Sequence record: NZ_CP072388.1
Length of the DNA stretch: 64,000 nucleotides
Reading direction: 5' to 3' (one strand)
Origin: a plasmid
The position numbers and the translations under genes are program-made. Numbering within the stretch: the first letter of the stretch is position 1; each line of letters begins with the position of its first letter. The notes below the pieces were generated by a model. That model had not been told where the DNA came from. It searched no databases and saw nothing but the letters and a program-made list of their open reading frames with translations. This document shows positions 4,564 through 20,426 of this stretch, in pieces.

Positions 4564-4935
4564 TCAGCCACCGGTGGTCTCCGTGAGCGAGGTTGCCAGC
4601 TGGCTGAGCGCGCCGGGGACCAGGGAGTAGTAGGCCCATCGGCCGCGTTGCTCGCGGTGGAGCAGGCCGGCGTCGACGAGGATCTTCAGGTGGTGGCTGA
4701 CGGTCGGCTGGGCGAGGCCGATCGGCTCGGTGAGGTCGCACACGCACGCCTCGCCGCCGTCGTGCGCGGCGACGATCGACAGCAGCTGCACGCGCGTCGG
4801 GTCGCCGAGCGCCTTGAAGATGCGGGCGAGGTCGCGCGCGGTCTCGGGGTCCGCGGCGTCGCGCACGAGCGGCGCGCAGCATCCGCCTGCCGCGGGAGCG
4901 TCCGGTGCCTCGAGGGTGAGCGCGGTGGTGGTCAT
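4564..4935 (-). CDS. arsR: ArsR/SmtB-family metalloid-responsive repressor
   Basis: HTH LGDPTRVQLLSIV...QPTVSHHLKIL. Carries both an N-terminal GGCC pair and an ACVCDL motif, i.e. Cys positions of both described As(III)-binding ArsR types. Confidence 0.85.
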   Translation of the reverse strand: MTTTALTLEAPDAPAAGGCCAPLVRDAADPETARDLARIFKALGDPTRVQLLSIVAAHDGGEACVCDLTEPIGLAQPTVSHHLKILVDAGLLHREQRGRWAYYSLVPGALSQLATSLTETTGG

Positions 4936-4952
4936 GCCCTCATCTTGCCATG

Positions 4953-5009
4953 TATCGAAGTTTGTAGATACGTTGGCGTCCTATTTGTTGATCGAAGTTC
5001 GTCGATGCG
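4953..5009. promoter_or_regulatory. divergent arsR / oxidoreductase promoter with two ~20-bp direct repeats (candidate ArsR operators)
   Basis: TATCGAAGTTTGTAGATACG (4953-4972) and GATCGAAGTTCGTCGATGCG (4990-5009). The second contains the palindrome CGAA-G-TTCG. AT-richer than surroundings. Confidence 0.3.
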
Positions 5010-5020
5010 AGGAGAGTGCG

Positions 5021-6436
5021 ATGAGCGTTGAGCGTGCGGACCTGCCGGTCGTGGTGATCGGTGCGGGCCCGGTGGGGCTGGCCGCGGCGGCGCACCTGCT
5101 GGAGCGCGGTCTGGAGCCGCTGGTCCTCGAGGCGGGTGACGGCCCGGGTGCGGCGATCGCGTCGTGGGGTCATGTGCGGTTGTTCTCCCCGTGGCGGTAC
5201 GACGTCGACGCCGCAGCCCGGCGCCTGCTGGACCCGACGGGGTGGGTCGAGCCGGACCCCGACACCCTGCCGACCGGTGGGGAGCTCGTCGGGCGCTACC
5301 TGGTCCCGCTCGCCGCGACGCCGCAGATCTCCGCGCGCCTGCGCACCGGGACGCGGGTCCTGGCGGTCGCGCGCGACGGCGCGGACAAGACGCGTTCCCT
5401 CGGGCGCGAGCGGCAGGGCTACCGGGTCCGCACCGTCGGCCCGGACGGGCAGGTTCAGGACGTGCTGGCGCGCGCGGTGATCGACGCGTCAGGCACGTTC
5501 TCGACGTCGAACCCGCTGGGTGTCTCCGGTCTCCCGGCGGCGGGCGAGACGGGGGCCGCAGGGTATGTCACCGGACCGCTTCCGGACGTCCTCGGGTCGC
5601 AGCGCGACCGGTTCGCCGGCCGGGACACGCTCGTCGTCGGGATGGGGCACTCCGCGGCGAACACGCTGCTGGCCCTCGTCGAGCTCTCCGAGGCCGAGCC
5701 GGGCACCACGATCACCTGGGCGATCCGCGGCGGGTCCGCGCGGCGCCTGTTCGGCGGCGGCTCCGACGACGAGCTTCCCGCCCGCGGGCTGCTCGGCACG
5801 CGCCTGCGGGCCGCCGTGGAGGCTGGGCGCCTGACCCTGCTCACCCGGGTCTCGATCGAGCGCCTCGTCCCGGGCGGGGACACCGTGCAGGTGCTGGGGA
5901 CCGCCCGTGACGGGGCGCTGAACCTCGACGTCCACCAGATCGTCAACGCGACCGGGTTCCGCCCGGACCTCGACATGCTGCGCGAGGTGCGCCTGGACCT
6001 GGACCCGGTCGTGGAGGCGCCCACGGCGCTGGCCCCGCTCATCGACCCGAACCAGCACTCGTGCGGCACGGTGCCCCCGCACGGGGAGCAGGTGCTGTCC
6101 CACCCGGACGACGGGTTCTACCTCGCGGGCATGAAGTCCTACGGCCGCGCGCCGACGTTCCTGCTCGCCACGGGGTATGAGCAGGTGCGCTCGATCGCCG
6201 CAGCGCTGGCCGGGGACCGGACCGCGGCCGACGCGGTCGAGCTGAACCTGCCCGCGACCGGCGTCTGCTCGACCGATCTGGCCCTGGAGGCCGACGGCGC
6301 GAGCGCGGGCGGGTCGTGCTGCGGAACCGCGCCGGCCGAGCCGCAGCTGGTCACCCTCGGTGTCGGGGCGCCGGCCGGTGTCGGGTTCGCGACCGGCGTC
6401 GTGCACGGCCGGTCGGGCGACGGCCAGGACGCGTGA
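5021..6436 (+). CDS. FAD/NAD(P)-binding oxidoreductase (ars-island associated)
   Basis: GGAGAG RBS. Rossmann motif VVVIGAGPVGLAAAAHLLERGLEPLVLE and a second dinucleotide motif LVVGMGHSAANTL. Cys-rich C-terminus GGSCCG. Confidence 0.75.
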   Translation: MSVERADLPVVVIGAGPVGLAAAAHLLERGLEPLVLEAGDGPGAAIASWGHVRLFSPWRYDVDAAARRLLDPTGWVEPDPDTLPTGGELVGRYLVPLAATPQISARLRTGTRVLAVARDGADKTRSLGRERQGYRVRTVGPDGQVQDVLARAVIDASGTFSTSNPLGVSGLPAAGETGAAGYVTGPLPDVLGSQRDRFAGRDTLVVGMGHSAANTLLALVELSEAEPGTTITWAIRGGSARRLFGGGSDDELPARGLLGTRLRAAVEAGRLTLLTRVSIERLVPGGDTVQVLGTARDGALNLDVHQIVNATGFRPDLDMLREVRLDLDPVVEAPTALAPLIDPNQHSCGTVPPHGEQVLSHPDDGFYLAGMKSYGRAPTFLLATGYEQVRSIAAALAGDRTAADAVELNLPATGVCSTDLALEADGASAGGSCCGTAPAEPQLVTLGVGAPAGVGFATGVVHGRSGDGQDA

Positions 6437-6939
6437 GTCTGACCCTGCGGATCGCGACCCCCGCCGACATGGCGGGGGTCGCGCGCATCTACGACCACTA
6501 CGTGACGACGTCGACCGCGACGTTCGAGCTCACCCCACCGGGCGAGACCGTGTGGGCGGACAAGCTCGTGGCCCTGCAGGGTGCGGGCTGGCCGTTCCTG
6601 GTCGCCGACCTCGACGGCGCCGTGTCCGGGTTCGCCTACGTGGGCCCGTGGCGCCCGCGCCCGGCCTACGCCCACACGGTCGAGGACACGATCTACCTCG
6701 ACCTCGCAGCGACCGGGCGCGGGATCGGGACCCGGCTGCTCGACCAGGTGCTCACCGACGCCGCAGCGGCCGGCGCACGAGAGGTGATCGCGGTCATCGC
6801 CGACGGCGACACCGCCGCATCACTCGCCCTGCACCGTCGCGCCGGGTTCACCGACGCCGGGCGCCTGGAACGCGTGGGCCGCAAGTTCGACCGGTGGCTG
6901 GGCACGACCCTGCTGCAGAAGTCCCTGCCCCTCCCGTAA
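6433..6939 (+). CDS. GNAT N-acetyltransferase of the phosphinothricin-acetyltransferase family (ArsN1-like)
   Basis: GTG start overlaps the upstream stop. IYDHYVTTSTATFEL...GFAYVGPWRPRPAYAHTVE...GRGIGTRLL matches PAT/Bar-family signature regions. Confidence 0.75.
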   Translation: MSLTLRIATPADMAGVARIYDHYVTTSTATFELTPPGETVWADKLVALQGAGWPFLVADLDGAVSGFAYVGPWRPRPAYAHTVEDTIYLDLAATGRGIGTRLLDQVLTDAAAAGAREVIAVIADGDTAASLALHRRAGFTDAGRLERVGRKFDRWLGTTLLQKSLPLP

Positions 6940-6961
6940 CCGCCCTGCGGGCACGGCAAAC

Positions 6962-7033
6962 ATAGATCGTGCTCTATCTGTCATCCGGGCTTCCGACCTC
7001 GTTCACCACACGTTCACATAGACCGCGTTCTAT
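6962..7033. promoter_or_regulatory. pstS promoter region: PHO-box-like 11-nt direct repeats plus two copies of palindrome ATAGA-N6-TCTAT
   Basis: GTTCACCACAC/GTTCACATAGA at 7001-7022 (two GTTCAC units 11 nt apart). ATAGATCGTGCTCTAT (6962-6977) and ATAGACCGCGTTCTAT (7018-7033). Confidence 0.4.
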
Positions 7034-7085
7034 CGATCGTGTTGGTGGATGCGGGCGGGCGAAGGTCCCGCCCCGACGAGACGGG

Positions 7086-8069
7086 ATGACTTACGTGTTC
7101 AGACTTCCGCAGCGCACCGCTGTCGTGATCGGCGCGACGGGGCTGGTGCTCACGCTCGCCGCGTGTGGTGGCCAGAGCCAGGGAGCGACCGGCGATGGCG
7201 AGACATCGGGTGGCGGGCTCAGCGGGGAGGTCGTCATCGACGGCTCCTCGACGGTCGAGCCGCTGAGCTCGGCGGCGGCCACGTTGTTCCGCGACGAGGA
7301 GCCGGGTATCAACGTCACGGTCGCCACGTCGGGCACCGGTGGCGGGTTCGAGCGGTTCTGCGCCGGGGAGACCGACATCTCCGACGCCTCGCGTCCGATC
7401 AAGGACGAGGAGATCGCGGCGTGCGAGGACAACGGTGTGGAATTCACCGAGATCGTCATCGCCAACGACGGCCTGTCGGTGGTGGTGAACCCGGAGAACG
7501 ACTGGCTGGAGTGCATCACGACCGAGCAGCTCGCGACCATCTGGGGCCCAGACTCCGAGGGCACGGTGACCTCCTGGAGCCAGGTCGACCCGGAGTTCCC
7601 GGACGAGGCGCTCGCGCTGTACGGGGCGGGCACGGACTCGGGCACGTTCGACTACTTCACCGAGGCGATCAACGGCGAGGAGGGCGCGATCCGCACGGAC
7701 TACACCCCGTCGGAGGACGACAACCTCACGGTGCAGGGCGTCTCTGGCGCGGTCGGCGCGATGGGGTTCTTCGGCCTGAGCTACGCCGAGGAGAACGCCG
7801 ACTCGATCAAGCTCCTCGCCGTGGACAACGGTGACGGGTGCGTCGTCCCGTCCAAGGAGACGGTGCAGGACGGCACGTACTCGCCGCTGGGCCGCCCGCT
7901 GTTCATCTACGTCAACAACGCGAAGTACGCCGAGAACGAGGCGCTGCGTTCGTTCGTCGACTTCTACCTCGCCAACGAGGAGGAGATCGCCGCGGACGCG
8001 CTGTTCATCGACCTGACGGACGAGCAGCAGCAGACCGCGGCGGACGAGCTCGCGAGCCTGGTCGGCTGA
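7086..8069 (+). CDS. pstS: phosphate ABC transporter substrate-binding lipoprotein
   Basis: Signal peptide plus lipobox LTLAAC. VIDGSSTVEPL, TSGTGGGFERFC and LSYAEEN motifs of PstS. Confidence 0.9.
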   Translation: MTYVFRLPQRTAVVIGATGLVLTLAACGGQSQGATGDGETSGGGLSGEVVIDGSSTVEPLSSAAATLFRDEEPGINVTVATSGTGGGFERFCAGETDISDASRPIKDEEIAACEDNGVEFTEIVIANDGLSVVVNPENDWLECITTEQLATIWGPDSEGTVTSWSQVDPEFPDEALALYGAGTDSGTFDYFTEAINGEEGAIRTDYTPSEDDNLTVQGVSGAVGAMGFFGLSYAEENADSIKLLAVDNGDGCVVPSKETVQDGTYSPLGRPLFIYVNNAKYAENEALRSFVDFYLANEEEIAADALFIDLTDEQQQTAADELASLVG

Positions 8070-8080
8070 CCGGCGCCTCG

Positions 8081-9055
8081 ATGAGCACCCCTCGTTCCAC
8101 GGTGGCCGGTCCGGTGCGTGCGCCGGGCCGGCCACCGGCCCTGACCGAGCACGGCCCGGCCATCACCCGCCGGCGCGCGCGCCGCGGTGAGGCGCTGGTG
8201 CGCCTCCTGCTGCGCCTGGCGGCCTGGTTGTCGATCCTGATCACGGTCGGCATCGTGATCTCGCTGCTGACACCCGCACTGCAGTTCTTCGCCGAGGTCT
8301 CCGTCGTGGAGTTCCTCACCGGGACTCGCTGGGCGCCGCAGTTCGCCGACCCGACCTTCGGGGTCCTGCCCCTGGTCACGGCCACGGCCTGGACGACGCT
8401 GATCGCGCTGGCGGTGGCGGTCCCGTTCGGGCTGGGCGCGGCGATCTACCTTGCCGAGTACGCGCGCCCCCGCGCCCGCAAGATCCTCAAGCCGATCCTC
8501 GAGCTGCTGGCCGGCGTGCCGACCGTGGTGTTCGGCTTCTTCGCCCTGTCGTTCGTCGCCCCGACGGTGCTGCGGGACTGGCTGAGCATCGAGGTCGGCA
8601 CGTTCTCGATCCTGGCCGCCGGGCTGGTCATGGGCGTGATGATCATCCCGACCGTCGCCTCCCTGTCCGAGGACGCCATGTCCGCGGTGCCCGCCGCACT
8701 GCGCCAGGGCTCGGCCGCGCTGGGCGCCAACCGGATGCAGACCTCGCTGCGCGTGGTCTTCCCCGCGGCGCTGTCCGGGATCGTCGCCGCGGTGGTGCTC
8801 GGCATCTCCCGTGCGATCGGGGAGACGATGATTGTCGCGATCGCTGCCGGCGCCCGGCCTCAGATGGTCACCGACCCGACCATGGAGGGCGCCACCATGA
8901 CCGGGTTCATCGCCCGCATGGCCCTGGGCGACGCCCGGGTCGGGTCGCTGGAGTACAACACCCTCTTCGCCGTGGGCCTGCTGCTGTTCGCCCTGACCCT
9001 CGTGGTCAACGCGATCAGCATCCAGCTCGTGCGCCGCTTCCGCCAGGAGTACTGA
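8081..9055 (+). CDS. pstC: phosphate ABC transporter permease
   Basis: Six TM segments. EYARPRARKILKPILELLAGVPTVVFGFFAL matches the PstC EAA-loop region. Confidence 0.9.
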   Translation: MSTPRSTVAGPVRAPGRPPALTEHGPAITRRRARRGEALVRLLLRLAAWLSILITVGIVISLLTPALQFFAEVSVVEFLTGTRWAPQFADPTFGVLPLVTATAWTTLIALAVAVPFGLGAAIYLAEYARPRARKILKPILELLAGVPTVVFGFFALSFVAPTVLRDWLSIEVGTFSILAAGLVMGVMIIPTVASLSEDAMSAVPAALRQGSAALGANRMQTSLRVVFPAALSGIVAAVVLGISRAIGETMIVAIAAGARPQMVTDPTMEGATMTGFIARMALGDARVGSLEYNTLFAVGLLLFALTLVVNAISIQLVRRFRQEY

Positions 9056-9963
9056 TGGCCCTGCACACCCCCGCCGTGGCGACCCAGCAAGCTCGCCTGG
9101 CCACCGGTAACCGGTCCAAGGAACGCACCCCGACCTCGGTGCTCTTCCTGGCCCTGCTGTGGATCTCGCTGTTCGTCGCGTTCGCCACCCTCGTCGCGCT
9201 GATCGTCACGACGATCGCCCAGGGCGCCGACCGGCTCGACTCGCGCCTGTTCACCGAGTACCCGTCCTCGCGGCCCGAGGAGGCCGGGGCGCGCCCCGCG
9301 ATCCTGGGGTCGCTGTGGGTGATCGGCACCACCGCCGCCCTCGCGATCCCGCTCGGGGTCGCCGCGGCCGTGCACCTGGAGGAGTTCGCCGACCGGCGCC
9401 ACTGGTTCAACCGGTTCATCGAGCTCAACATCCAGAACCTGTCGGCCATCCCGTCGATCATCTACGGCATGCTCGCGATCGGGACCCTGGCCTTGATCGG
9501 CGTCGGGAACAAGAACATCGTGATCGGCGGCGCGCTCGCCCTGGCGCTGCTCATCCTGCCCGTCATCATCATCGCCACCCGTGAGGCGTTGCGCGCCGTC
9601 CCGCGCGAGCTGCGCCACGGGTCGCTCGCTCTAGGCGCGACCGAGCTGCAGACCACCTGGCGCATCACGTTGCCCGCCGCGGTCCCGGGCATCGCCACCG
9701 GCACGATCCTGGCCCTGTCCCGCGCGCTCGGCGAGGCCGCGCCGCTGCTGCTGCTGGGTGCCCTGGTGTTCATCTCCTTCGACCCCAACGGGCTGCTCTC
9801 GGGCTTCACCACCATGCCGATCCAGATCTATGGCTGGACCAACGCACCCCAGGCCGGGTTCCACGAGCTCGCGGCCGCGACCTCGATCCTGCTCGTGGGG
9901 ATCCTGCTGGCCATGAACGCGCTGGCCATCATCATCCGCAACCGCTACCAGCGCCGCTGGTGA
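9055..9963 (+). CDS. pstA: phosphate ABC transporter permease
   Basis: ATG overlaps the pstC stop (TGATG). Permease topology with an EAA-like loop. Confidence 0.9.
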
Positions 9964-9986
9964 GACCACCCGAGGACCACCCCACC

Positions 9987-10868
9987 ATGACCACCACCGG
10001 CACCTCCGCGAAGGCCACCATGTCCTCCAGCACCCAGATCTCCACTCGCCCCGCCCACAGCGAGCACCGCGAGATCCCTGCCGAGCCCAACCCGGTCCTG
10101 CAGTGCGAGGACGTCGACGTCTACTACGGCTCCTTCCGCGCCGTGCGCGACGTGTCCCTGGCGTTCGGGCACAACGAGATCACGGCCCTCATCGGCCCGT
10201 CCGGGTGCGGGAAGTCCACCATCCTGCGCTCCTTGAACCGGATGAACGACCTGGTCGAAGGCGCGCGCGTGACCGGGTCCGTACGGTACTGGGGCCAGGA
10301 CATGTATGGCGCCGGCGTGGACCCGATCGAGGTGCGCCGCCGCATCGGGATGGTCTTTCAAAAGCCCAACCCGTTCCCGAAGTCGATCTACGACAACATC
10401 GCCTACGGCCCGAGAGTCACGGGGATGAAGGTCGCGTCGATGGACGACCACGTCGAGCAGGCACTGACCCGCGCCGCCCTGTGGGACGAGGTCAAGGACA
10501 AGCTCAAGCAGTCCGCCTACGGCCTGTCCGGTGGGCAGCAGCAGCGCCTGTGCATCGCCCGCACGATCGCCGTCGAGCCCGACGTGATCCTCATGGACGA
10601 GCCGTGCGCGTCGCTCGACCCCATCGCGACCATGCGCATCGAGACCCTCATGACCGAGCTGCGCGACCTGTACACGATCGTCATCGTCACCCACAACATG
10701 CAGCAGGCGGCCCGCGTCGCCGACCGCACCGCGTTCTTCACCGCCGCCGTCGACGAGACCACCGGTGACCGCACGGGCGAGCTCGTCGAGTTCGACCACA
10801 CCGCGAAGATCTTCGAGAACCCGGCCGACCAGCGCACCGAGGACTACATCACCGGACGCTTCGGCTGA
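9987..10868 (+). CDS. pstB: phosphate ABC transporter ATP-binding protein
   Basis: Walker [10 protein letters not shown], signature [13 protein letters not shown], Walker B ILMDEP. A start at 9960 (GTG) is also possible. Confidence 0.9.
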
Positions 10869-10888
10869 CCACCCACCAGGAGCCGACG

Positions 10889-11644
10889 ATGACCGTCACC
10901 CTTCCCCCGCGCGGTCCCAGCACCCAGCGCGAGGCCACCGCGCTCGGGCCCCAGACCGTGCGCGCCGTCCTCGTCGACCCCACGTTCGACCCTCGCGAAG
11001 GGCTCGTGACCGCGATGCGCGAGCAAGGCATCACGCTCGAGCCCGTGAGCGACCCGCTGCGCGGCCTCGCCCGCGCCTCGCTCGCACACACCCGCGCCGT
11101 CGTGGTCAGCGCAGCGGTGGCCGACCCGATGCTCAGCGCCTTCGTCGCCGTGGTGCGCGACGAGCTCGACCTGCCCGTCCTGCTCGCCCACCGGGCCGGC
11201 GACGCCGACCGGCTCGGCGGCGCGGTGCTCGCCGGGGCCCGGCCCGTCGTCGACCAGCCCTACCAGCCCGCGCGCATGGCCGCGACCCTGCTCGGCCTCG
11301 CCGGGAACCAGGAACCAGGGATCGTGCGCGTCGGATCGCTCGAGCTCGACCCGGACGCCTACGACGCACGCCTGCACGGACGCGGCATCGACCTGAGCAC
11401 GCTGGAGTTCGAGGTCCTGCACGAGCTGGCGACCCACCCCGACCACGTGATCCCGCGCGAGCGGTTCACCCACCGCTACTGGCCGCGTTCACCCGACCCG
11501 GACGGAACCCTGGCCGCGGTCATCTCCCGCCTGCGCCGCAAGCTCGACGCCCATCACCTCGCCGGCGCCATCCACACCGTGCGCGGGATCGGCTTTCGCC
11601 TGGAGAGCGCCGTCCTCGCCGCATACTCACACCCAAACCCATAG
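10889..11644 (+). CDS. OmpR/PhoB-type winged-helix DNA-binding protein with atypical (pseudo-)receiver N-terminus
   Basis: C-terminal trans_reg_C-like domain (LELDPDAYDARLHGRGIDLSTLEFEVLHELA...TVRGIGFRLE). The N-terminal 130 aa is receiver-like but lacks the acidic DD pocket. Lies directly after pstB. Confidence 0.65.
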   Translation: MTVTLPPRGPSTQREATALGPQTVRAVLVDPTFDPREGLVTAMREQGITLEPVSDPLRGLARASLAHTRAVVVSAAVADPMLSAFVAVVRDELDLPVLLAHRAGDADRLGGAVLAGARPVVDQPYQPARMAATLLGLAGNQEPGIVRVGSLELDPDAYDARLHGRGIDLSTLEFEVLHELATHPDHVIPRERFTHRYWPRSPDPDGTLAAVISRLRRKLDAHHLAGAIHTVRGIGFRLESAVLAAYSHPNP

Positions 11645-11656
11645 ACGTCGATCTAT
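11641..11656. promoter_or_regulatory. third copy of palindrome ATAGA-N6-TCTAT
   Basis: ATAGACGTCGATCTAT overlaps the stop codon of the 10889 regulator and lies upstream of the 11666 ORF. Confidence 0.3.
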
Positions 11657-11665
11657 CATGATGGG

Positions 11666-12079
11666 GTGGCGAGCCGACTCCTCGACCGGGACGTGAGCGC
11701 GACCGTCGCCGTCGCGGCGTCGGCCGAGCAGACGTGGCGTGCGCTCCTGGTCGTCCTGGGGATCGACGCCGAGGTACCGGGTGTGCCGGCGGCCTACGGG
11801 GCCATGGCCGGGCGTGTGCGCGACGCTGTGCCGGGGGACGGCTTGGTGGTGCGTGGCCGTCTGGGCGCGCGCACGTACGAGTTCTCCGCCCATCTCGTCG
11901 CCCGCGGTGTGTGGTGCGACCTGACGGTGGACGCAGCCCCGGACGACCTTGTCGGGGCAGTAGAGGGCGGGCGCTGGCGGCACCACCTGGCCCGGCGTCG
12001 GGTCCGGCAGCTCGTGCGAGATCTGGTGACCGATGTCGCGCGCACGGCGGGTAGCGGCGCCGGTCCGGTCTCGCGCTGA
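11666..12079 (+). CDS. hypothetical protein (possible SRPBCC-fold)
   Basis: GTG-start ORF of 137 aa. Family assignment is weak. Confidence 0.35.
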   Translation: MASRLLDRDVSATVAVAASAEQTWRALLVVLGIDAEVPGVPAAYGAMAGRVRDAVPGDGLVVRGRLGARTYEFSAHLVARGVWCDLTVDAAPDDLVGAVEGGRWRHHLARRRVRQLVRDLVTDVARTAGSGAGPVSR

Positions 12080-12093
12080 GAGGCTGCCCGGCT

Positions 12094-13005: not shown

Positions 13006-13024
13006 CGGGGCACGCCCCGCCCGG

Positions 13025-13381
13025 TCAGCGCAGCAGGTCCGCGATCGCGTGCAGACGGACGGGGACGATGGAGTACCAGACCTCGCGTCCCACGGGGTCG
13101 CGGGTGACGATGCCCGCCTCGGTCATCACCTTCAGGTGGTGGGACACGGTGGGCTGGCGCAGGCCGAGCGCGCGGGTCAGGTCCGCGACGCGGGCACGGG
13201 CATCGGCGCTGTGGTGGATCAGGCTCAGCAGCTGTAGGCGGGTGGGGTCGGAGACGACCCGCAGCAGCGTGGCGGTGTCCTCGGCCTGCTCGCGGCTCAG
13301 CGTCGTGCGCAGGGCGGGCCCCGGCGCGCGTTCGGCCCGCCCCTGCAGGGGCGGGGACGACTCGCTTGCCGGGGCGCTCAC
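13025..13381 (-). CDS. arsR: ArsR-family regulator (cysteine-free)
   Basis: LQLLSLI...QPTVSHHLKVM HTH. No Cys anywhere in the protein. Confidence 0.8.
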   Translation of the reverse strand: MSAPASESSPPLQGRAERAPGPALRTTLSREQAEDTATLLRVVSDPTRLQLLSLIHHSADARARVADLTRALGLRQPTVSHHLKVMTEAGIVTRDPVGREVWYSIVPVRLHAIADLLR

Positions 13382-13403
13382 CCATCGAGGATAGCCGTCC
13401 GCG

Positions 13404-13844
13404 TCAGGCGGCCGGGGTGGGCGCGACCGGCGTGACGCCGAGCTCGCCCAGCAGGGTCAAGACACGGCCGCGGATCTCGTCGCGAATGGGGCGCACAGAC
13501 TCGATGCCCTGCCCTGCCGGGTCGGCGAGCTCCCAGTCCTCGTAGCGCTTGCCGGGGAAGATCGGGCAGGCGTCGCCGCAGCCCATGGTGATGACGACGT
13601 CGGACGCCTGGACGGCCTCGGTGGTGAGGACCTTGGGCTGCTCGGCGCGGATGTCGATGCCCTCTTCGAGCATGGCCTCGACGGCGACGGGGTTGATCTG
13701 GTCCGCCGGGGCCGAGCCGGCGGAGCGGACCTCGACGGCGCCGCCGGACAGTGCGCGAAGGTAGCCGGCGGCCATCTGGGATCGGCCGGCGTTGTGGACG
13801 CAGACGAACAGGGCTGACGGCTTCGCGGTGGTGGTGTCGGTCAT
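13404..13844 (-). CDS. arsC: arsenate reductase, LMW-PTP family (thioredoxin-coupled)
   Basis: AGGAGAA RBS. P-loop ALFVCVHNAGRSQMAAG. Downstream Cys pair ITMGCGDACP. Confidence 0.85.
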   Translation of the reverse strand: MTDTTTAKPSALFVCVHNAGRSQMAAGYLRALSGGAVEVRSAGSAPADQINPVAVEAMLEEGIDIRAEQPKVLTTEAVQASDVVITMGCGDACPIFPGKRYEDWELADPAGQGIESVRPIRDEIRGRVLTLLGELGVTPVAPTPAA

Positions 13845-13870
13845 GGCGTTCTCCTGGTTGCTGGTGGATC

Positions 13871-14881
13871 TCAGGCGATGGTCAGGGTCAGGTCGGGCAG
13901 CAGGTCGGCGAGCAGGCCCCGTACTCGCTCGTCGAGGTCGTCGCGGATCGCGGCGACCCCTGCGGGGGAGGCCAGGGCGGGGTCGCCGACGAGCCAGTCC
14001 TCGTACCTCTTGCCGGGCAGCACGGGGCAGACGTCGCCGCAGCCCATGGTGATGACGACATCGGCGGCGCGGACGGCGTCGTCGGTCAGGGGCTTGGGGA
14101 AGGCTTCGTCGTCGTCGGTGCCGAGCTCGGTCAGGGCCTCGAGCACCCCGTCGTGGATGTCGGCGGCAGGCGTGGACCCGGCGGAGCGGACCACGACGCG
14201 GTTCCCGGCGTAGTGCTGCAGCAGGGCGGCGGCGAGCTGGGAGCGTCCGGCGTTGGCGACGCAGACGAACAGCACTTGCGGTCGGGCGTCGCCGGAGCGG
14301 GTGAGGTCGGCCAGTCTCTGGCGGGCGAACCGTGCGGTGAGCGGCACCAGGTGGGCCGAGACCTTCGCCGAGCGGGCCAGGTCGGTGTAGGACTCGCGGA
14401 CCACGCGTTGCACGACGTCGAACCGGACGTCGGGAAACGCTCCGGCGAGGTCCTCGGCGAGGTGGTCGAGCGCCGGGTCGACGTCGTCCAGCCCCGCCAG
14501 GACGGCCGCACCGTGTGCAGAGCCCAGCGCGGCCGGGGCGAACGAGTCGAGCAGCGTCGTCACCGCGGCCTTGTAACCGCCGGTGATGCGGTACCAGACC
14601 CAGGTGCCGCGCCGTTCGGAGGTCAGCACGCCGACGTCGCGCAGCACCTTGAGGTGGTGCGACACGGTGGGCTGTGACACGTCGGTGAGGGCGGCGAGGT
14701 CGCACACGCACGCCTCCCCGGCGGGTGCGGTCGCGATGAAGGACAGCATCCGTAGCCGCAGCGGCTCGGCGAGGGCCTTGAGCGTGGTGGCGACGGCGCC
14801 GGCGACCTCGGTGCCGATCGCGTGGGACTCGATCTGCGGGGCGCAGTCCGGGTCCGTGACAGTCAAGGGTGTGGTGGTCAT
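13871..14881 (-). CDS. tri-domain fusion: ArsR (EACVCDL metalloid site) + linker domain + LMW-PTP arsenate reductase
   Basis: N-terminal LRLRMLSFIA...EACVCDL...QPTVSHHLKVL. C-terminal VLFVCVANAGRSQLAA...ITMGCGDVCP. ATG overlaps the acr3 stop (ATGA). Confidence 0.8.
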   Translation of the reverse strand: MTTTPLTVTDPDCAPQIESHAIGTEVAGAVATTLKALAEPLRLRMLSFIATAPAGEACVCDLAALTDVSQPTVSHHLKVLRDVGVLTSERRGTWVWYRITGGYKAAVTTLLDSFAPAALGSAHGAAVLAGLDDVDPALDHLAEDLAGAFPDVRFDVVQRVVRESYTDLARSAKVSAHLVPLTARFARQRLADLTRSGDARPQVLFVCVANAGRSQLAAALLQHYAGNRVVVRSAGSTPAADIHDGVLEALTELGTDDDEAFPKPLTDDAVRAADVVITMGCGDVCPVLPGKRYEDWLVGDPALASPAGVAAIRDDLDERVRGLLADLLPDLTLTIA

Positions 14882-15984
14882 GACCTCACCTCTTCCAGCT
14901 CGGGTGTTCGAGTCGTGGGGGCGTAGGGGTCGACGGCGAACCAGCGGCGCGCGAGCCACAGGGAGACGTAGACGAGGCCGACGAGGACGGGGACCTCGAT
15001 GAGCGGGCCGACGACGCCGGCCAGGGCCTGACCTGACGTGGCGCCGAACGTGCCGATGGCGACGGCGATCGCGAGCTCGAAGTTGTTGCCCGCAGCGGTG
15101 AAGGCGAGCGTCGTGGAGCGTGCGTAACCGAGCGCGAGCATCTTGCCGACGACGATGCCGATGCCCCACATGGCGGCGAAGTACACCAGCAGCGGCAGCG
15201 CGATGCGGGCCACGTCGAGCGGGTGGGAGGCGACGGCCTCGCCCTGCAGGGCGAAGAGCAGCACGATCGTGAACAGCAGTCCGTACAGCGCCCACGGCCC
15301 GACCTTCGGCAGGAACCGGTCCTCGTACCAGGTGCGGCCCTTGGCGCGTTCGCCGACCAGGCGGGAGGCGAACCCGGCGGCCAGCGGGACACCGAGGAAG
15401 ACGAGGACGTTGAGCGCGATCTGCCCGACCGAGACGTCGAGGCCCTGGGTGTCCAGACCGAGCCATCCGGGCAGCACGGTGAGGTAGAAGTAGCCGAGCA
15501 GCGAGAACGCGACGACCTGGAAGGCGGAGTTGATCGCGACCAGCACCGTGGCCGCCTCCCGATCCCCGCACGCGAGGTCGTTCCAGATCACGACCATCGC
15601 GATGCAGCGGGCCAGGCCGACGATGATCAGCCCTGTGCGGTACTCGGGCAGGTCGGGCAGGAAGGCCCAGGCAAGGGCGAACATCAGCGCGGGACCGACC
15701 AGCCAGTTCAGTACCAGCGAGGAGACCAGGAGCCTCTTGTCGCCGGTGACCGCGCCGACGCGGTCGTAGCGGACCTTGGCCAGGACCGGGTACATCATGA
15801 CGAGCAGGCCGAGCGCGATCGGGACCGAGATCCCGCCGACCTCCATCGCCGTGAGCACCTCGGACAGGGCGGGGACGAACCGGCCCAGGACGAGACCGGC
15901 GACCATCGCGAGGCCGATCCACAGCGGCAGCCACCGGTCCAGCGTGGACAGGCGCCCGCGCGTGGCGGTCGTGGGGTCGCTCAC
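14878..15984 (-). CDS. acr3: ACR3-family arsenite efflux permease
   Basis: ten predicted TM helices (hydropathy estimate by eye). Conserved ACR3 regions LNWLVGPALMFALAW and IVGLARCIAMVVIWNDLACGD (catalytic Cys region). GTG start overlaps the trxA stop (GTGA). Confidence 0.9.
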   Translation of the reverse strand: MSDPTTATRGRLSTLDRWLPLWIGLAMVAGLVLGRFVPALSEVLTAMEVGGISVPIALGLLVMMYPVLAKVRYDRVGAVTGDKRLLVSSLVLNWLVGPALMFALAWAFLPDLPEYRTGLIIVGLARCIAMVVIWNDLACGDREAATVLVAINSAFQVVAFSLLGYFYLTVLPGWLGLDTQGLDVSVGQIALNVLVFLGVPLAAGFASRLVGERAKGRTWYEDRFLPKVGPWALYGLLFTIVLLFALQGEAVASHPLDVARIALPLLVYFAAMWGIGIVVGKMLALGYARSTTLAFTAAGNNFELAIAVAIGTFGATSGQALAGVVGPLIEVPVLVGLVYVSLWLARRWFAVDPYAPTTRTPELEEVRS

Positions 15985-16304
15985 GCGAGGACCTCCTCGA
16001 TCTCGGCGACCAGCGCCTGCTTCGGGCGTGCGCCGACGACGGACTTCACCAGCTGGCCGTCGGAGTAGAAGTTCAGCGTCGGGATCGACACGACGCCCGC
16101 CGCCGCCACGGTCTTCGGGTTGGCGTCGGCGTCGAGCTTGGCGATCGTGAGCCTGCCCTCGTACTCCTGCGCGAGCTCGGCCAGGATCGGGGCGACCTGG
16201 CGGCACGGGCCGCACCACGTGGCCCAGATATCCACCAGCACAGGCACTTCGGAGGCCAGGACCACCTCGTCGAAGGTGTCGTCGGTGACGGTCACGGTGC
16301 TCAT
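15981..16304 (-). CDS. trxA: thioredoxin
   Basis: WCGPC active site, 108 aa, GGAGGAG RBS. ATG overlaps the trxB stop (ATGA). Confidence 0.9.
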
Positions 16305-17323
16305 CGGATCTCCTCCAGCGCCAGGGGCAGCTCGTCGGGGTTCGGGGTCTCGGGCGTGCCGGCCAGGTTCGCAAGGCCGGCGGCGTCGGCGAGCTCGGTG
16401 AGGTAGGCCTGGGCGTCCAGGGCGGCGGAGGCGCCGGTCCCGGCGGCCGTGATGGCCTGCCGGTAGGTGTGGTCGACCACGTCGCCGGCGGCGAACACGC
16501 CCGACAGGTTGGTGCGGGTGGAGCGGCCCTGGACCAGGATGTAACCGTCGTCGTCGAGGTCGACCTGGCCCTTGACCAGGTCGGTGCGCGGCTCGTGGCC
16601 GACGGCGACGAACAGGCCCGTCGCGGGCAGCTCGCGCTCGGCGCCGGTCACGGTGTCGCGCAGCGTCAGGCCCTCGACCTTGTTCTCTCCGCCGATCGCG
16701 GCGACCTCGCTGTTCCAGGCGAACTCGATCTTCGGGTCGTTCAGGGCGCGGTCGGCCATGATCTTCGACGCACGCAGCTCCCCACGGCGGTGCACGACGG
16801 TGACCTTGGACGCGAACCGGGTGAGGAACGTGGCCTCCTCCATCGCGGAGTCCCCGCCGCCGACGACCGCGATGTGCTGGTCGCGGAAGAAGAACCCGTC
16901 GCAGGTGCCGCACCAGGACACCCCGCGCCCGGACAGCCGCTCCTCCTCGGGCAGGCCGAGCTTGCGGTAGGCGGACCCGGTGGTCAGGATCACCGCCCGG
17001 GCCCGGTAGGTGTCGCCGCTGCCGGTGTGGAGCGTCTTGACCGGGCGGTCCAGCTCGAGGGACGTCACGTCGTCCCACACGATGCGCGCCCCGAACTTCT
17101 CGGCCTGGGCCCGCATGGCGTCCATGAGCTCAGGGCCTTGGATGCCGTCCGCGAACCCGGGGAAGTTCTCCACCTCGGTCGTGGTCATCAGCGCGCCACC
17201 GGCGGTGACCGAGCCGGCGACCACCACCGGCGCCAGGCCGGCACGGGCGGCGTAGATCGCCGCGGTGTACCCGGCGGGGCCCGACCCCACGATCACGATC
17301 TCCTGAACCTCTTGCATCGACAT
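16301..17323 (-). CDS. trxB: thioredoxin-disulfide reductase
   Basis: [18 protein letters not shown] motif, redox CGTCDG (CxxC), NADPH motif [10 protein letters not shown]. Confidence 0.9.
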
Positions 17324-17398
17324 GCCTCTATGTTGACACCGGTCGATGCAGCGCGCAAGGTGGATATCGATGAACGTCGATGCAACAGGAAGTGGATC

Positions 17399-17656
17399 AT
17401 GAACTGTTACGAGCACGCGCAGGAAGGCCGCGAGACGGTCGCCGTGGGGGTCTGCCCGCGCTGTGGCGCCGCGGTCTGCGCCGAGCACGCGGGGGAGTGT
17501 CGGGTCGAGATCGTTCGGAGCAACGGTGTCGGGTCGCCGACCCTCGGGCAGCACCGGGTCGTGTGCTGCGACCGGTGCCGCGCCTCTGGAGCTTGTGCCG
17601 GCGTGTGGCGGGCGGGCGTCGACGGCGCGCGTGAGCCGGCTGGTCGCGGCGTGTAG
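17399..17656 (+). CDS. small Cys-rich zinc-ribbon protein (DUF2180-like), paralog of 2423
   Basis: MNCYEH...[12 protein letters not shown]...CCDRCR. Divergent from trxB. The intergenic region carries GTCGATGCA twice. Confidence 0.5.
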
Positions 17657-17705
17657 CGCTCAGTTCACCGTGCTCGGAAGAAGCCCTGGTGGGTCGCCGG
17701 GGCGG

Positions 17706-18926
17706 TCATGCAGCGTTTGGGCGGTGCACCCCGGTCGACAGGGCGATGAGTGCCGCGAGGGCGGCGGACGCGGCAAGGACCGCGAACGTCGCCGGGTAGG
17801 AGCCGGTGGCGCCGGTGAACGCGGCGGCCGCCCAGGGCGCCAGTGCCATCGCGAGCGTGGTGGGGGCGTTGAGGATCCCGAACAAGACGCCGTACGAGCC
17901 CGATCCCCACCGGTCGCTGATCGCGGTGGACTGCAGCAGCGTGAATGCGCCGCGCGCCACGCCGAGGGCGACGGCGGCGGCGATGAGCGCGGTGGCCGGT
18001 CCGTCGAGCAGCCCGACGATGGCGATCGTCAGGGCCGAGGTGCCGAGGAGCGCGCTGGCGCGGACGGGTGGTGTGGTGCGCGCGGCGAGCGATCCGTACG
18101 CGATGCGCCCCAGGAGCTGACCCGCGCCGGACAGGCCGAGCGCCCACGCGGCCGCAGCCGCTGTCAGGCCGCGCCAGGTCAGCATCGGCACCAGATGGAT
18201 GGTGGCGGCGAACATCGCGAACGCGCCCAGCGCGGTGGCGCAGGTCAGGGCGAGGAACGCTCGAGAGCGCGCGATCGTTCGCCACCCGCCTCCGCCGTGT
18301 GCGTGCTGGGCGGTCTCGAGGGGCGGCCAGGGTGCGCGCAGGCCGATTGCGTGCGCGGGGATGGTCGTCAGGGCGAGCAGGACGGCCAGGAAGAGGTAGG
18401 TCTGGCGCCATCCCGCGTGCTGGACCAGGGCGGCGGTCAGGGGCGCGAAGATCGTGCTCGCGAGCCCTGCCACCAGGGTCAGCACGAGCAGGGCCCGGGT
18501 CCGCGCGGGCCCGTACCAGCGGGTGATCGCGGTGAACGCCGGGGCGTAGAGCACCATCGACTGGGCGACGCCGACCATGACCCAGGCGGCGAGGAACCAA
18601 CCCAGGGACGGGGCAAGCGCGACGGCGATCACGGCGACGCTCGCCAGGACGGACCCAGTGGTCATCACCGCCCGGGGACCGTGGTGATCGATGCGTCTGC
18701 CCACGAGCACGCCCGCGCCGGCTGCGACGACCAGGGCCGCGGAAAACGCGGCCGTCGCGCTGGCTGGCGACCAGCCGGTGTCGGCCGTGATGGCCGGCAA
18801 GGCGACCGGGAAGGAGTAGTACAGGACGCCCCACCCCACGACCTGGGTCAGGCACAAGGCCGCGAGGGTGCCGCGTGGGCCGGTGCGCAGACCGGCGTCG
18901 CCTCGGCCCCTCTGCGTGGTGGTCAC
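17706..18926 (-). CDS. MFS transporter (candidate ArsK/ArsJ-like efflux)
   Basis: Twelve TM segments. Start and stop overlap the upstream flavin-monooxygenase gene. Confidence 0.8.
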   Translation of the reverse strand: MTTTQRGRGDAGLRTGPRGTLAALCLTQVVGWGVLYYSFPVALPAITADTGWSPASATAAFSAALVVAAGAGVLVGRRIDHHGPRAVMTTGSVLASVAVIAVALAPSLGWFLAAWVMVGVAQSMVLYAPAFTAITRWYGPARTRALLVLTLVAGLASTIFAPLTAALVQHAGWRQTYLFLAVLLALTTIPAHAIGLRAPWPPLETAQHAHGGGGWRTIARSRAFLALTCATALGAFAMFAATIHLVPMLTWRGLTAAAAAWALGLSGAGQLLGRIAYGSLAARTTPPVRASALLGTSALTIAIVGLLDGPATALIAAAVALGVARGAFTLLQSTAISDRWGSGSYGVLFGILNAPTTLAMALAPWAAAAFTGATGSYPATFAVLAASAALAALIALSTGVHRPNAA

Positions 18927-20005
18927 GACCGAGTCAGCGTACGCACGGTGCGTGCGTGCGCGCTGACCGCCGCGGCGACGTGGGCGGCGTCGCGGTGCAC
19001 GCCGCGCAGCGTGTTCGAGGCGAACGAGCGCTGCAGCTCCAGCCCCACGAACCCCAGTCCCGGCCGGGCGAGCGAGATCCCGCCGCGCTGGCGCGGCATA
19101 CCGCGCTCGTCCAGCAAGGCCAGGTCACCGAGGTAGTCCAGCGCGGGCCGGTACCCGGTGGCCAGCACGAGGGCGTTGACGCGTTCGCGTGCCCCGTCTG
19201 CCCACACCACCCCGTCCTGGTCGACCGCGCTGAACATCGCGCGCGAGTCCACGGTGCCGTTCGCCAGCGCCTCGCGATAGCTGCCGGCGTCCAGGACCAG
19301 CGGCCCACGCACCACGCGTCGAAGCACCGCCGGGGGGAAGCGGTCGAAGCCGGTGACGCGGAACCAGAAGTGCACGTCCCGCCCCAGCGGGCGCTGGGTC
19401 GCGAACACGACGGGCTGGCGCGTCGCGAGGGTCACGTCGCTCACTTGCGCGAGCTCGTGCGCGATCTGCACCCCCGAGTTCCCGCCACCGACGACCACGA
19501 CGCGCTCCCCGGCGAACGACGAGGGATCGCAGTACTGGGCCGCGTGCACCACCCGGCCCGTGAAGTGCTCCAGCCCAGCAACGCTCGGACGCACAGGGTT
19601 GGCGAACGACCCCGTCGCCGCGATCACCCCGCTCGCGTCGAGCTCGACCCCGTCGCCCGTGCGCACCACGAACCCGGTCCCCGCCGGCTCGACCCCCACC
19701 ACCCGGGTTCCCGTCCGCACCTCGACCCCGAGGTGGTCGGCGTACCGGTGCAGGTGCTCGACCACCTCGTCCCGCGCCGGGTACCGGTCCGGGTCCCCCC
19801 CGAAGCCGAACCCGGGGAAGCCGCTGTACCGGGCCGGGGAGAACAGCCGCAGGCTGTCGTAGTACGACGGCCACGACCCCACCGGTCGGTCGCCCGCCTC
19901 CAGCACGAGCGGCTCGAGACCTCGCTCGCGCACGGCCCTGGCCGCGGCCAGGCCCGACTGGCCGGCACCGCTGATGATCACGGGGAGCGTCGTTGACGTC
20001 GTCAC
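18923..20005 (-). CDS. flavin-containing monooxygenase-like NAD(P)/FAD-binding protein (ArsO/ArsV-like)
   Basis: GTG start. IISGAGQSGLAAARAV (FAD) and a second dinucleotide site VVVVGGGNSGVQIAHEL. Sits in an ars context, divergent from arsR. Confidence 0.75.
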   Translation of the reverse strand: MTTSTTLPVIISGAGQSGLAAARAVRERGLEPLVLEAGDRPVGSWPSYYDSLRLFSPARYSGFPGFGFGGDPDRYPARDEVVEHLHRYADHLGVEVRTGTRVVGVEPAGTGFVVRTGDGVELDASGVIAATGSFANPVRPSVAGLEHFTGRVVHAAQYCDPSSFAGERVVVVGGGNSGVQIAHELAQVSDVTLATRQPVVFATQRPLGRDVHFWFRVTGFDRFPPAVLRRVVRGPLVLDAGSYREALANGTVDSRAMFSAVDQDGVVWADGARERVNALVLATGYRPALDYLGDLALLDERGMPRQRGGISLARPGLGFVGLELQRSFASNTLRGVHRDAAHVAAAVSAHARTVRTLTRS

Positions 20006-20069
20006 ATCCGTAACGTATCGATGATTCGCAATATGTCAATACGACGATGGATCGAGATACGCTCCAGGG

Positions 20070-20399
20070 ATGAGCACGCCGACAAGCCGCCCAGCGGTCG
20101 TGGAAGCTGCGCCGCTCGCGCTGGCCGAGGCGACGCACGACTTTCTCAGCGCGTTGGCGAGCCCCACACGCCAGCGTGTCCTGCTGCTGTTCGCGCGCGG
20201 CGGCGAGCTCGCGGTCGGGGAGGTGGCCGAACGTGCAGGCATCAGCCAGCCCACTGCATCCCAGCACCTGCAGATCCTGCGCCGTGGTGGCATTGTGACC
20301 TCGCGCCGCCAAGGCCGGGTCGTGCTCTACCGCGCCGACCGCGACGGCGTGGCGCGTGCGCTGAGCGACCTGCAGGCCTATCTCCAAGCGTGCTGCTGA
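20070..20399 (+). CDS. arsR: ArsR-family regulator with C-terminal Cys-Cys pair
   Basis: HTH ...QPTASQHLQIL. The protein ends ...LQACC, and has no CVC motif. Confidence 0.8.
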   Translation: MSTPTSRPAVVEAAPLALAEATHDFLSALASPTRQRVLLLFARGGELAVGEVAERAGISQPTASQHLQILRRGGIVTSRRQGRVVLYRADRDGVARALSDLQAYLQACC

Positions 20400-20426
20400 G
20401 CACCTGGAGGTCGTCGCGCCGCTCGC

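Follow-up and report, generated by a model that had tools for sequence, protein, structure and literature searches.

A composite arsenic island with its own thioredoxin system and a phosphate importer on plasmid record NZ_CP072388.1

We analysed a 64,000-nucleotide stretch of plasmid DNA (sequence record NZ_CP072388.1; hereafter the window, ~71% G+C) which carries a cluster of arsenic resistance (ars) genes. Very probably this cluster is a discrete, horizontally transferred arsenic island of 15.8 kb (~4579-20413), organised in four regulated modules and of a type common in Micrococcales and other Actinobacteria. A preliminary description of the same DNA had proposed a dense composite arsenic island at 4564-20399, and this was borne out. 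The clustering of ars genes is far beyond chance, as judged by the recurrence of the entire block in Cellulosimicrobium funkei and of its modules in dozens of genomes.

The block 4579-20413 is colinear with C. funkei contig BCSK01000059 at 87-89% identity, and its boundaries lie close to the coordinates first proposed. The sole break in colinearity is a 308-bp indel at 17394-17701, which holds a DUF2180 gene. Cellulosimicrobium provides the closest relatives of the island (protein matches of 84-93%). Both flanks differ. On the left, an RNase J gene in the window stands against FMO and DUF2306 genes in C. funkei. On the right, colinearity stops at 20413; the window continues with two tyrosine recombinases (20427-24151), a ligase, an Abi protein and a coupling protein of a type IV secretion system (T4SS), and the C. 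funkei locus (11675-19089 of BCSK01000059) with TniA (Mu-type)/TniB/TniQ and a resolvase, then merR-merA-merB. Since a copy of this identity sits between two different flanks in C. funkei, we regard the block as a horizontally moved unit set in differing mobile contexts.

Coding frames were picked by third-position GC and then tested with Pfam and NCBIfam, an unfiltered listing of open reading frames being uninformative here (104 per 19 kb at ~71% G+C). All the genes of the preliminary description were recovered at their places by these means. Searches with the family models it had named gave matches above cut-off for ArsR (four domains) and ACR3, and missed the ArsN1, ArsO, ArsK and NCBIfam ArsC cut-offs. 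About one third of the interval (~5 kb) had been omitted, namely pstSCAB, an atypical regulator, orf137 and DUF2180; the shared operator system and the mobile context were also absent from its interpretation.

We propose the following arrangement. Module 1, trxB-trxA-acr3-arsRC1-arsC(-arsR-arsRC2), would be the core detoxification operon. Module 2 would combine the high-affinity phosphate importer pstSCAB with a phosphorylation-independent OmpR-type regulator. In module 3, the gene of ArsR1 (four Cys) would stand back to back with that of a flavoprotein whose tail holds a conserved Cys triad, followed by a coupled gene for a PAT-family acetyltransferase; in module 4, the gene of a terminal-CC ArsR would stand back to back with those of an FMO-like enzyme and an MFS exporter.

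Core detoxification operon and its arsenate reductases

The core operon is carried by the minus strand. Its first gene, trxB (16301-17323), encodes an ArsT-like thioredoxin reductase (TrxR) with a CxxC motif at residues 138/141 (TIGR01292, 393.7 bits, cut-off 343), and is followed by trxA (15981-16304), encoding an ArsX-like thioredoxin (Trx) with a CGPC motif (TIGR01068, 109.9 bits, cut-off 96.8). The GTG start of acr3 (14878-15984) overlaps the trxA stop codon; its product, an arsenite efflux permease of 368 amino acids (aa), matches TIGR00832 over its full length (model positions 1-326 of 327; 426.4 bits, cut-off 282.8). The arsRC1 gene (13871-14881) encodes a 336-aa fusion of an ArsR domain, a three-helix dimerisation bundle and an ArsC domain of the low-molecular-weight protein-tyrosine-phosphatase type (LMW-PTP), as shown by HTH_5, PF21234 and LMWPc matches. 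It is followed by a standalone arsC (13404-13844; 146 aa, LMWPc 71.6 bits), whose product has the CX5R loop and, in GCGDACP, a Cys pair.

The stop/start overlaps read earlier at the trxB/trxA (ATGA), trxA/acr3 (GTGA) and acr3/arsRC1 (ATGA) junctions are exact, each of 4 nt, and a gap of 26 nt separates arsRC1 from arsC. Two more GTGA overlaps occur in the island, between the FAD (flavin adenine dinucleotide) oxidoreductase and GNAT genes and between the FMO and MFS genes. The five genes trxB, trxA, acr3, arsRC and arsC are on the same strand with minimal spacing, in the order of the Microbacterium A33 operon type. The order (trxB-trxA)-acr3-arsRC-arsC is kept in more than 20 Micrococcales genomes and one Microbacterium plasmid, and at least 523 relatives of the ArsR-ArsC fusion were found in genome contigs. 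Sequence data therefore support a trxB/trxA pair that is dedicated to, and translationally coupled with, acr3 and the ArsR-ArsC fusion. The proposal that the reductant system is hard-wired into the efflux operon fits these overlaps as well as the thioredoxin-coupled class of the ArsC domains. Promoters and terminators escaped prediction at this high GC content; operon limits and co-transcription were therefore predicted from spacing.

We then considered whether the three LMW-PTP domains could be generic phosphatases. Their closest solved relative is Cg_ArsC1' of Corynebacterium glutamicum (PDB 3T38), with 184.9 bits for ArsRC1 (residues 138-324) and 144.6 bits for the standalone ArsC, far above the scores of the mycothiol-dependent Cg_ArsC2 (3RH0) and of generic phosphatases. 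The CX5R(S/T) loops read CVHNAGRS, CVANAGRS and CVRNAGRS, and in the alignment all three domains share the distal Cys pair, GCGD(A/V)CP. A Cys alignment placed equivalents of Cg_ArsC1' C88, C162 and C166 (numbering from PMC6514093) in each of them, at Cys207/281/285 in ArsRC1 and Cys181/255/259 in the second fusion, ArsRC2. The fusions also carry the PF21234 bundle, as in Cg_ArsC1'. Two differences from that enzyme were seen: two of the three island copies carry an extra N-terminal ArsR domain, and the standalone ArsC is without the three-helix bundle. Taken together, these features support the assignment of the three domains to the thioredoxin-coupled arsenate reductase type rather than to generic phosphatases. 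Because the ArsC domains are of the thioredoxin-dependent Cg_ArsC1' type, the presence of Trx and TrxR in the operon itself would be accounted for. Arsenate would be reduced by three Cg_ArsC1'-type reductases, these would be recycled by the operon's own Trx/TrxR with NADPH as the source, and the resulting arsenite would be exported by ACR3.

Downstream of arsC, in the same orientation, lie a gene for a Cys-free ArsR (13025-13381; 118 aa) and arsRC2 (12094-13005; minus strand, 303 aa), which encodes a diverged, Cys-free ArsR-like helix-turn-helix (HTH) domain, the three-helix bundle and an LMW-PTP ArsC domain (PF21234 and LMWPc matches). Both arsR-arsC fusions of the preliminary description are thus present, with the qualification that the N-domain of the second is a diverged ArsR fold without HTH_5 match. 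BLASTP showed ArsRC2 to be a paralogue of ArsRC1 over its full length (45% identity). Its N-domain is 39% identical to the ArsRC1 HTH over 64 aa (E 6e-10, BLASTP); it matched neither HTH_5 nor NF033788, and only weakly Rv2640c_fam (E 1.4e-4).

One could therefore suspect that the genes of the Cys-free ArsR and of ArsRC2 arose by duplication of functional sensor genes and are now decaying, with no role of their own. The Cys ligands are absent from the Cys-free ArsR and from the sensor domain of ArsRC2, whose recognition helix is altered, having lost the conserved QPTVSHHL motif, and whose HTH is not recognised by Pfam. Against this, the Cys-free ArsR differs from its C. funkei counterpart at only 6 of 119 aa, with nucleotide differences distributed 7/2/29 over the codon positions, and ArsRC2 with 20/20/91 (2/4/30 for the standalone ArsC). 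Given these distributions, both proteins are maintained by purifying selection. Moreover, the unit formed by the Cys-free arsR, arsRC2, the atypical regulator gene and pstBACS recurs in three further genomes, and the reductase domain of ArsRC2 retains every catalytic residue. Decay of the pair is thus distinctly unlikely.

Palindromic operators and the phosphate importer

A 16-bp palindrome, AT(A/C)GA-N6-TC(G/T)AT, is found at every promoter region of the island except that of FMO/arsR-CC. With at most one mismatch allowed, the window contains 9 sites for 1.76 expected, a number reached in 0 of 100 shuffles; seven of the nine lie inside the island, all intergenic. The arsR1/FAD oxidoreductase divergent region has two operators of the ATCGA-N6-TCGAT class, at 4954-4969 (1 mismatch) and 4991-5006. 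Two others precede pstS, ATAGATCGTGCTCTAT at 6962-6977 and ATAGACCGCGTTCTAT at 7018-7033, the latter abutting direct repeats. Operator ATAGACGTCGATCTAT (11641-11656) is located 10 nt upstream of orf137, overlapping the stop codon of the regulator gene. Of the two remaining sites, a hybrid, ATAGAGGCATGTCGAT (17316-17331, read on the minus strand), spans the trxB ATG (ATAGAnnCATGTCGAT), and ATCGATGAACGTCGAT (17366-17381) lies in the trxB/DUF2180 divergent region. Four other genera also have an operator placed over the trxB start codon, a conserved geometry which suggests a leaderless or very short-leader trxB transcript whose start would be occluded by the repressor.

A scan of 83 related loci (1.56 Mb) returned 95 exact palindromes, compared to ~0.5 expected from base composition, most of them no more than 200 nt upstream of the start of an ars or pst gene. 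The two classes were distributed differently. Palindromes of the ATCGA/TCGAT class stood beside arsR1 or FAD oxidoreductase starts in 24 of 30 cases; those of the ATAGA/TCTAT class stood beside arsC, arsRC or pstS starts in 28 of 42 and never beside arsR1. Hybrid palindromes occurred at trxB, acr3 or arsRC operon starts. Since the classes sort by neighbouring gene, these data argue for two ArsR-type regulons and assign pstS to that of ArsRC type. The pairing of repressors with operators was inferred: the ArsR moiety of ArsRC1 would repress through the palindromes at and over the trxB start, and As(III) bound at its Cys13/58/60 site would relieve repression. The FMO/arsR-CC intergenic region (20006-20069) is AT-rich and without the shared palindrome; ArsR-CC therefore probably recognises a different operator, for which ATCGATGATTCGCAATATGTCAATACGACGATGGATCGA is among the candidates.

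The presence of pstS among the operator-bearing genes drew attention to the phosphate importer, which is encoded on the plus strand and is complete (7086-10868; order S-C-A-B), its four subunits all scoring above curated cut-offs. It comprises the phosphate-binding lipoprotein PstS with lipobox LAAC (7086-8069; TIGR02136, 279.1 bits, cut-off 206.6), the permeases PstC (8081-9055; TIGR02138, 264.3 bits, cut-off 196.5) and PstA (9055-9963; TIGR00974, 244.3 bits, cut-off 193.5), and the ATPase PstB (9960-10868; TIGR00972, 385.1 bits, cut-off 343.2), the start of which is uncertain, the C. funkei orthologue being annotated with 293 aa from a later start codon. It is followed by the gene of an atypical OmpR/PhoB-family regulator (10889-11644, plus strand; Trans_reg_C 56 bits, no Response_reg match), composed of a winged-helix DNA-binding domain and a pseudo-receiver. 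In an alignment with a PhoB reference sequence, other residues stand at the positions of the phospho-acceptor Asp, the Thr and the Lys, both in this regulator and in its ars-linked homologs. The regulator gene is found downstream of pstB in at least 8 ars-linked pst operons, and plasmids of Streptomyces and Pseudonocardia carry pst, the regulator gene and ars genes in linkage.

The next gene, orf137 (11666-12079, plus strand), encodes a hypothetical protein of 137 aa with no Pfam or NCBIfam match and no detectable homolog beyond close relatives. A third-position GC (GC3) of 0.85 and its independent call in C. funkei, together with 66% aa identity and codon-position differences of 28/28/53, indicate that it is probably a real gene but fast-evolving and under weak constraint. 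Both 10889-11644 and 11666-12079 had been candidates for ars genes; domain searches gave an OmpR-type regulator and an orphan reading frame instead.

The pstS promoter region (6962-7033, plus strand) combines two kinds of element. Between its two operators, PHO-box-like 11-nt direct repeats, GTTCACCACAC-GTTCAC (7001-7017), directly abut the second operator; no other such pair occurs anywhere in the 64 kb of the window. Their agreement with the Streptomyces PhoP unit G(G/T)TCAYYYR(G/C)G (PMC2275107) covers its conserved first 6-7 positions. The same fusion of repeat and palindrome precedes the island pstS of C. funkei, an Actinomycetota metagenome-assembled genome, Microbacterium thalli and Agromyces lapidis, and variants of it were seen in a Microbacterium sp., Leucobacter and a Pseudonocardia plasmid. 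Because the shared palindrome abuts PHO-box-like repeats in this promoter and the arrangement is conserved in other actinobacteria, the island phosphate importer probably belongs to the arsenic regulon.

A related situation has been described in the Agrobacterium tumefaciens 5A island, where ArsR1 represses pstS1/phoB1 and arsenite de-represses pst1/phoB1 independently of phosphate (Kang et al. 2012/2016; PMC7965956, PMC3834237). Both islands bear a pst operon and their own PhoB-family regulator beside ars genes. They differ by phylum, by the lack of aio (arsenite oxidase) genes in the present island, by the missing phospho-acceptor Asp of its regulator and by an operator that abuts PHO-box-like repeats; here, regulation is predicted. 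By our reading, the direct repeats would be used by an OmpR/PhoB-type activator, either host PhoP or the island's own non-phosphorylatable regulator, and an ArsR-type repressor would gate the pstS promoter. As this promoter fuses the repeats to an ArsRC-class palindrome, arsenic probably de-represses the selective phosphate importer. De-repressed Pst would keep phosphate entering by a selective route while arsenate competes.

Alternatively, pstSCAB and the regulator gene may form an ordinary phosphate-starvation operon that happens to lie amid ars genes, under host PhoR-PhoP control only. The PhoP-like repeats and the fact that all four Pst proteins pass generic equivalog cut-offs would be expected in that case, and the chromosomal pst genes of Rhodococcus BCP1 are not arsenic-induced (PMC6514093). 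We nevertheless consider it unlikely: the operon lies inside a block that moves as one unit, has ars genes on both sides and is found on ars-bearing plasmids. Furthermore, its promoter carries two copies of a palindrome otherwise seen at arsC, arsRC and trxB starts, in at least 6 genomes, and it has its own regulator, non-phosphorylatable by sequence.

ArsR-type sensors and the flavoenzyme modules

The five ArsR-type domains with four Cys signatures of the preliminary description were confirmed by a Cys map. With NF033788 (ArsR/SmtB winged helix, cut-off 55 bits), ArsR1 scored 99.7 bits, the ArsRC1 HTH 88.7, ArsR-CC 82.2 and the Cys-free ArsR 75.0. ArsR1 (4564-4935, minus strand; also HTH_5) has CC+CVC, with GGCC at the N-terminus (Cys19/Cys20) and CVCDL (Cys64/Cys66); ArsRC1 has C+CVC; the Cys-free ArsR and the N-domain of ArsRC2 have none; ArsR-CC (20070-20399, plus strand) has only the terminal pair Cys108-Cys109, its last two residues. 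At least three Cys thiolates per site are thus available in ArsR1 (C19, C20, C64, C66) and ArsRC1 (C13, C58, C60), and this three-thiolate As(III) set is absent from the Cys-free ArsR, the ArsRC2 domain (0 Cys) and ArsR-CC (2 Cys). It is a reasonable inference from this diversity that inorganic, organo- and pentavalent arsenicals may serve as inputs, as had been proposed; judging from their composition, the two domains without Cys cannot bind arsenicals through thiolates.

The Cys-Cys C-terminus was found in 27 of 27 sampled ArsR-CC homologs, from genera including Cellulosimicrobium, Oerskovia, Occultella, Kribbella, Streptomyces, Micromonospora, Nocardioides and Jiangella. By analogy, a methylated or aromatic trivalent arsenical would be a fitting ligand of such a two-thiol site. 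PMC6514093 cites an MAs(III)-selective ArsR from Shewanella putrefaciens (Chen et al. 2017), in which the only Cys are also a vicinal pair near the C-terminus, Cys101-Cys102, and the partner is an organoarsenical-type detoxification gene. Unlike in that protein, the island pair forms the last two residues, and its partner is FMO-like, not arsP, arsH or arsI.

The gene divergent from arsR1 encodes a FAD/NAD(P)-binding oxidoreductase of 471 aa (5021-6436, plus strand; Pyr_redox_3, DAO and NAD_binding_8 matches) from an uncharacterised ars-linked family. It is not ArsO (NF040505, 44.9 bits against a cut-off of 425). The family is very large, with 8000 of 8000 scored candidates at E <= 1e-20; the best matches are from Cellulosimicrobium, at 93% identity. 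Four Cys are invariant, C348 (HSCGT), C416 (LPxTGVC) and the vicinal C433-C434 in the flexible C-terminal tail, as sampled in 31 close and 37 more distant homologs. The tail is otherwise variable, and many homologs end with SCCS-COOH. No close solved structure was found. An AlphaFold (AF2) model was mediocre (predicted local distance difference test, pLDDT, of 64, with Cys-bearing regions below 50); its best fold matches, all with low template-modelling (TM) scores, were YpdA/Bdr bacillithiol-disulfide reductase, TrxR-like ferredoxin reductases and FMOs. What the model supports is membership in the TrxR-like/FMO two-dinucleotide-binding superfamily and no more; it is silent on the tail. Literature searches on this ars-linked oxidoreductase returned nothing relevant. 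The Cys-Cys tail is reminiscent of MerA and insect thioredoxin reductase, in which swinging-arm tails serve in redox reactions or metal binding, and a thiol-tail flavoenzyme acting on an arsenical is plausible from the sequence. The divergent arsR1/FAD oxidoreductase pair, often with a GNAT or MFS gene, recurs in more than 30 loci.

The next gene, whose start overlaps the oxidoreductase stop codon (GTGA), encodes a Cys-free GNAT N-acetyltransferase of 168 aa (6433-6939, plus strand). Its earlier description as an ArsN1-like PAT-family GNAT holds for the PAT family, which is clear; the ArsN1 part is less secure, with scores of 123.6 bits for ArsN1b (cut-off 210) and 76.5 for ArsN1a (170), and a near-equal 112.7 for phosphinothricin (PPT) acetyltransferase (300). 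Its closest solved structures are phosphinothricin acetyltransferases, and PpArsN1 (5JTF) gave only 60 bits.

On the other side of the island, the FMO-like flavoprotein (18923-20005, minus strand; 360 aa, FMO-like and Pyr_redox_3 matches) is related to ArsO without being its equivalog (NF040505, 232.6 bits over the full length, cut-off 425). The start of the MFS transporter gene (17706-18926, minus strand; 406 aa, MFS_1) overlaps the FMO stop codon (GTGA); ArsK is still its best-scoring family, with 172.4 bits over the full length of NF033733 for a cut-off of 400. Orthologues of the transporter with 42-73% identity are present in ars clusters of other genomes, and inside arsenic clusters of Occultella, Streptomyces, Kribbella and Micromonospora the FMO-like gene was always divergent from a terminal-CC arsR.

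These shortfalls leave room for another interpretation, in which the FAD oxidoreductase/GNAT and FMO/MFS pairs would confer xenobiotic, redox or phosphinothricin-type herbicide resistance and their ArsRs would sense another metal, sulfur species or oxidants. It could draw on all four enzymes and transporters falling under the curated ArsN1/ArsO/ArsK cut-offs, on the near-equal phosphinothricin acetyltransferase score, on the many different ligands sensed across ArsR/SmtB members and on the mere two Cys of the terminal-CC ArsR. However, both modules are embedded in arsenic clusters of Occultella, Microbacterium, Streptomyces, Kribbella, Micromonospora and Pseudonocardia, ArsR1 has the classic CVC plus N-terminal CC As(III) ligand set, and a tail motif of three thiols, as is typical of As(III) sites, is retained in the oxidoreductase. 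A function outside arsenic resistance is therefore improbable, and modules 3 and 4 probably handle trivalent or organic arsenicals. A more specific proposal, in which the flavoprotein, always found paired with ArsR1, would be a new arsenic enzyme, its tail capturing a trivalent arsenical for oxidation or the enzyme reducing a pentavalent organoarsenical, and in which the pstS promoter and regulator would form an arsenic-gated phosphate switch, is put forward tentatively, and we would not yet favour it. We know of no bacterial reductase of pentavalent organoarsenicals.

Between the core operon and module 4, divergent from trxB, a gene for a small Cys-rich DUF2180 protein (17399-17656, plus strand; 9 Cys in 85 aa, PF09947 27.2 bits, cut-off 22.2, GC3 0.85) is absent from the C. 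funkei copy of the block and also occurs in Streptomyces ars clusters. Literature searches on DUF2180 returned nothing relevant.

Several points weigh against the interpretation of the island as a whole. It rests on comparison of sequences, expression, binding and phenotype being predicted, and scans for sigma-70 promoters and intrinsic terminators gave nothing usable in 71% G+C DNA. The palindrome was assigned to ArsR-type proteins by position and enrichment only. The LMW-PTP domains score below the NCBIfam ArsC cut-offs (TIGR02691 174, TIGR02689 158, NF010053 215), the best value being 89.4 bits for the standalone ArsC on TIGR02689; these models (pI258-type, Synechocystis-type) are built on Firmicutes and cyanobacterial enzymes, and the actinobacterial clade is nearer to 3T38. 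With the GNAT, FMO, MFS and FAD oxidoreductase below the cut-offs given above, their arsenical substrates are putative. Finally, the lack of As(V) induction of chromosomal pst in Rhodococcus BCP1 means that arsenic control of pst is not general, and the island pst operon may also, or only, answer to host PhoP.

Mobile surroundings, known systems and significance

The right flank of the island, outside the conserved block, begins with two adjacent tyrosine recombinase genes with overlapping stop/start codons (20427-24151, minus strand; products of 842 and 399 aa, the larger with a long N-terminal extension; Phage_integrase matches). A comparable pair of large and small recombinases (locus 1122-6064) flanks the ars/pst island of Pseudonocardia alni plasmid pPaSha1. 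Further genes encode an ATP-dependent DNA ligase domain protein (24185-25063, plus strand), an Abi_2 abortive-infection-like protein (30500-31408, plus strand) and a TraG/VirD4-type T4SS coupling protein (35392-37143, minus strand; TraG-D_C/T4SS-DNA_transf matches), a stretch which suggests an integrative conjugative element or a plasmid-derived region. Several large reading frames without family matches (37143-42442) have the orientation of the coupling-protein gene. The C. funkei copy of the block, for its part, adjoins a mercury-resistance transposon.

When the block edges (4498-4600 vs 20395-20470) and other parts were searched for direct or inverted repeats of att type, only 8-nt chance matches appeared, and neither tRNA genes nor Rfam families were found in the whole window. 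The GC content dips to 0.64-0.66 at 30-34 kb and 50-54 kb. Dispersed direct repeats of ~300-360 bp are present in three copies of 83-97% identity (55529-55883, 57143-57513, 61245-61557), with a further 120-bp pair at 56924-57042 and 58909-59025.

To the left of the island lie genes for a SulP/STAS anion transporter (565-2391, plus strand) and an RNase J homologue (2812-4497, plus strand). SulP/STAS genes also adjoin equivalent islands in Streptomyces pFRL3 (locus 18749-20239) and one metagenome contig, and SulP may be a loosely associated accessory of the island.

The core operon matches in architecture the arsTX-ACR3-arsRC2-arsC1 cluster of Microbacterium sp. A33, which encodes ArsX, ArsT and ArsR-ArsC2 (reviewed in PMC6514093 and PMC6205960). 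In both, TrxR and Trx genes come first, followed in the same order by ACR3, an ArsR-ArsC fusion and a further ArsC. Unlike the A33 cluster, the island adds a Cys-free arsR and arsRC2 in the same orientation, pstSCAB, the atypical regulator and two further ArsR-controlled modules. The A33 cluster is reportedly the subject of Achour-Rokbani et al. 2010, AEM 76:948.

Linear-plasmid clusters of Streptomyces (pHZ227, pFRL3) are similar in content: they too assemble arsR, acr3, an arsO-type FMO gene, LMW-PTP arsC, trxB (arsT) and trxA on a mobile replicon, together with DUF2180, GNAT, a 470-aa FAD oxidoreductase, pstSCAB and a gene resembling those of response regulators. The gene set of the island, with pstSCAB, the regulator, DUF2180, the GNAT and the FAD oxidoreductase among its members, is found on both Streptomyces pFRL3 and Pseudonocardia pPaSha1. 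The arsRBOCT cluster of pHZ227 is said to have been described by Wang et al. 2006. In contrast to the island, these clusters have another gene order and pFRL3 is without full-HTH ArsR-ArsC fusions; the island FMO is only ~37% identical to the annotated ArsO.

Composite arsenic islands with built-in thioredoxin and ArsR-ArsC fusions are thus already known and widespread in Actinobacteria. The new points are an arsenic-linked phosphate importer with a composite promoter, two operator classes and conserved ars-linked protein families. The island offers a compact, well-delimited example, whose sharp edges and changing flanks document its spread. The Cys-tailed flavoprotein, the terminal-CC ArsR with its FMO, DUF2180 and the pseudo-receiver regulator provide leads for arsenic and organoarsenical biochemistry. 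In Actinobacteria, phosphate import is a physical and probably also a regulatory component of the response to arsenic, for which the only experimental parallel is in Agrobacterium.

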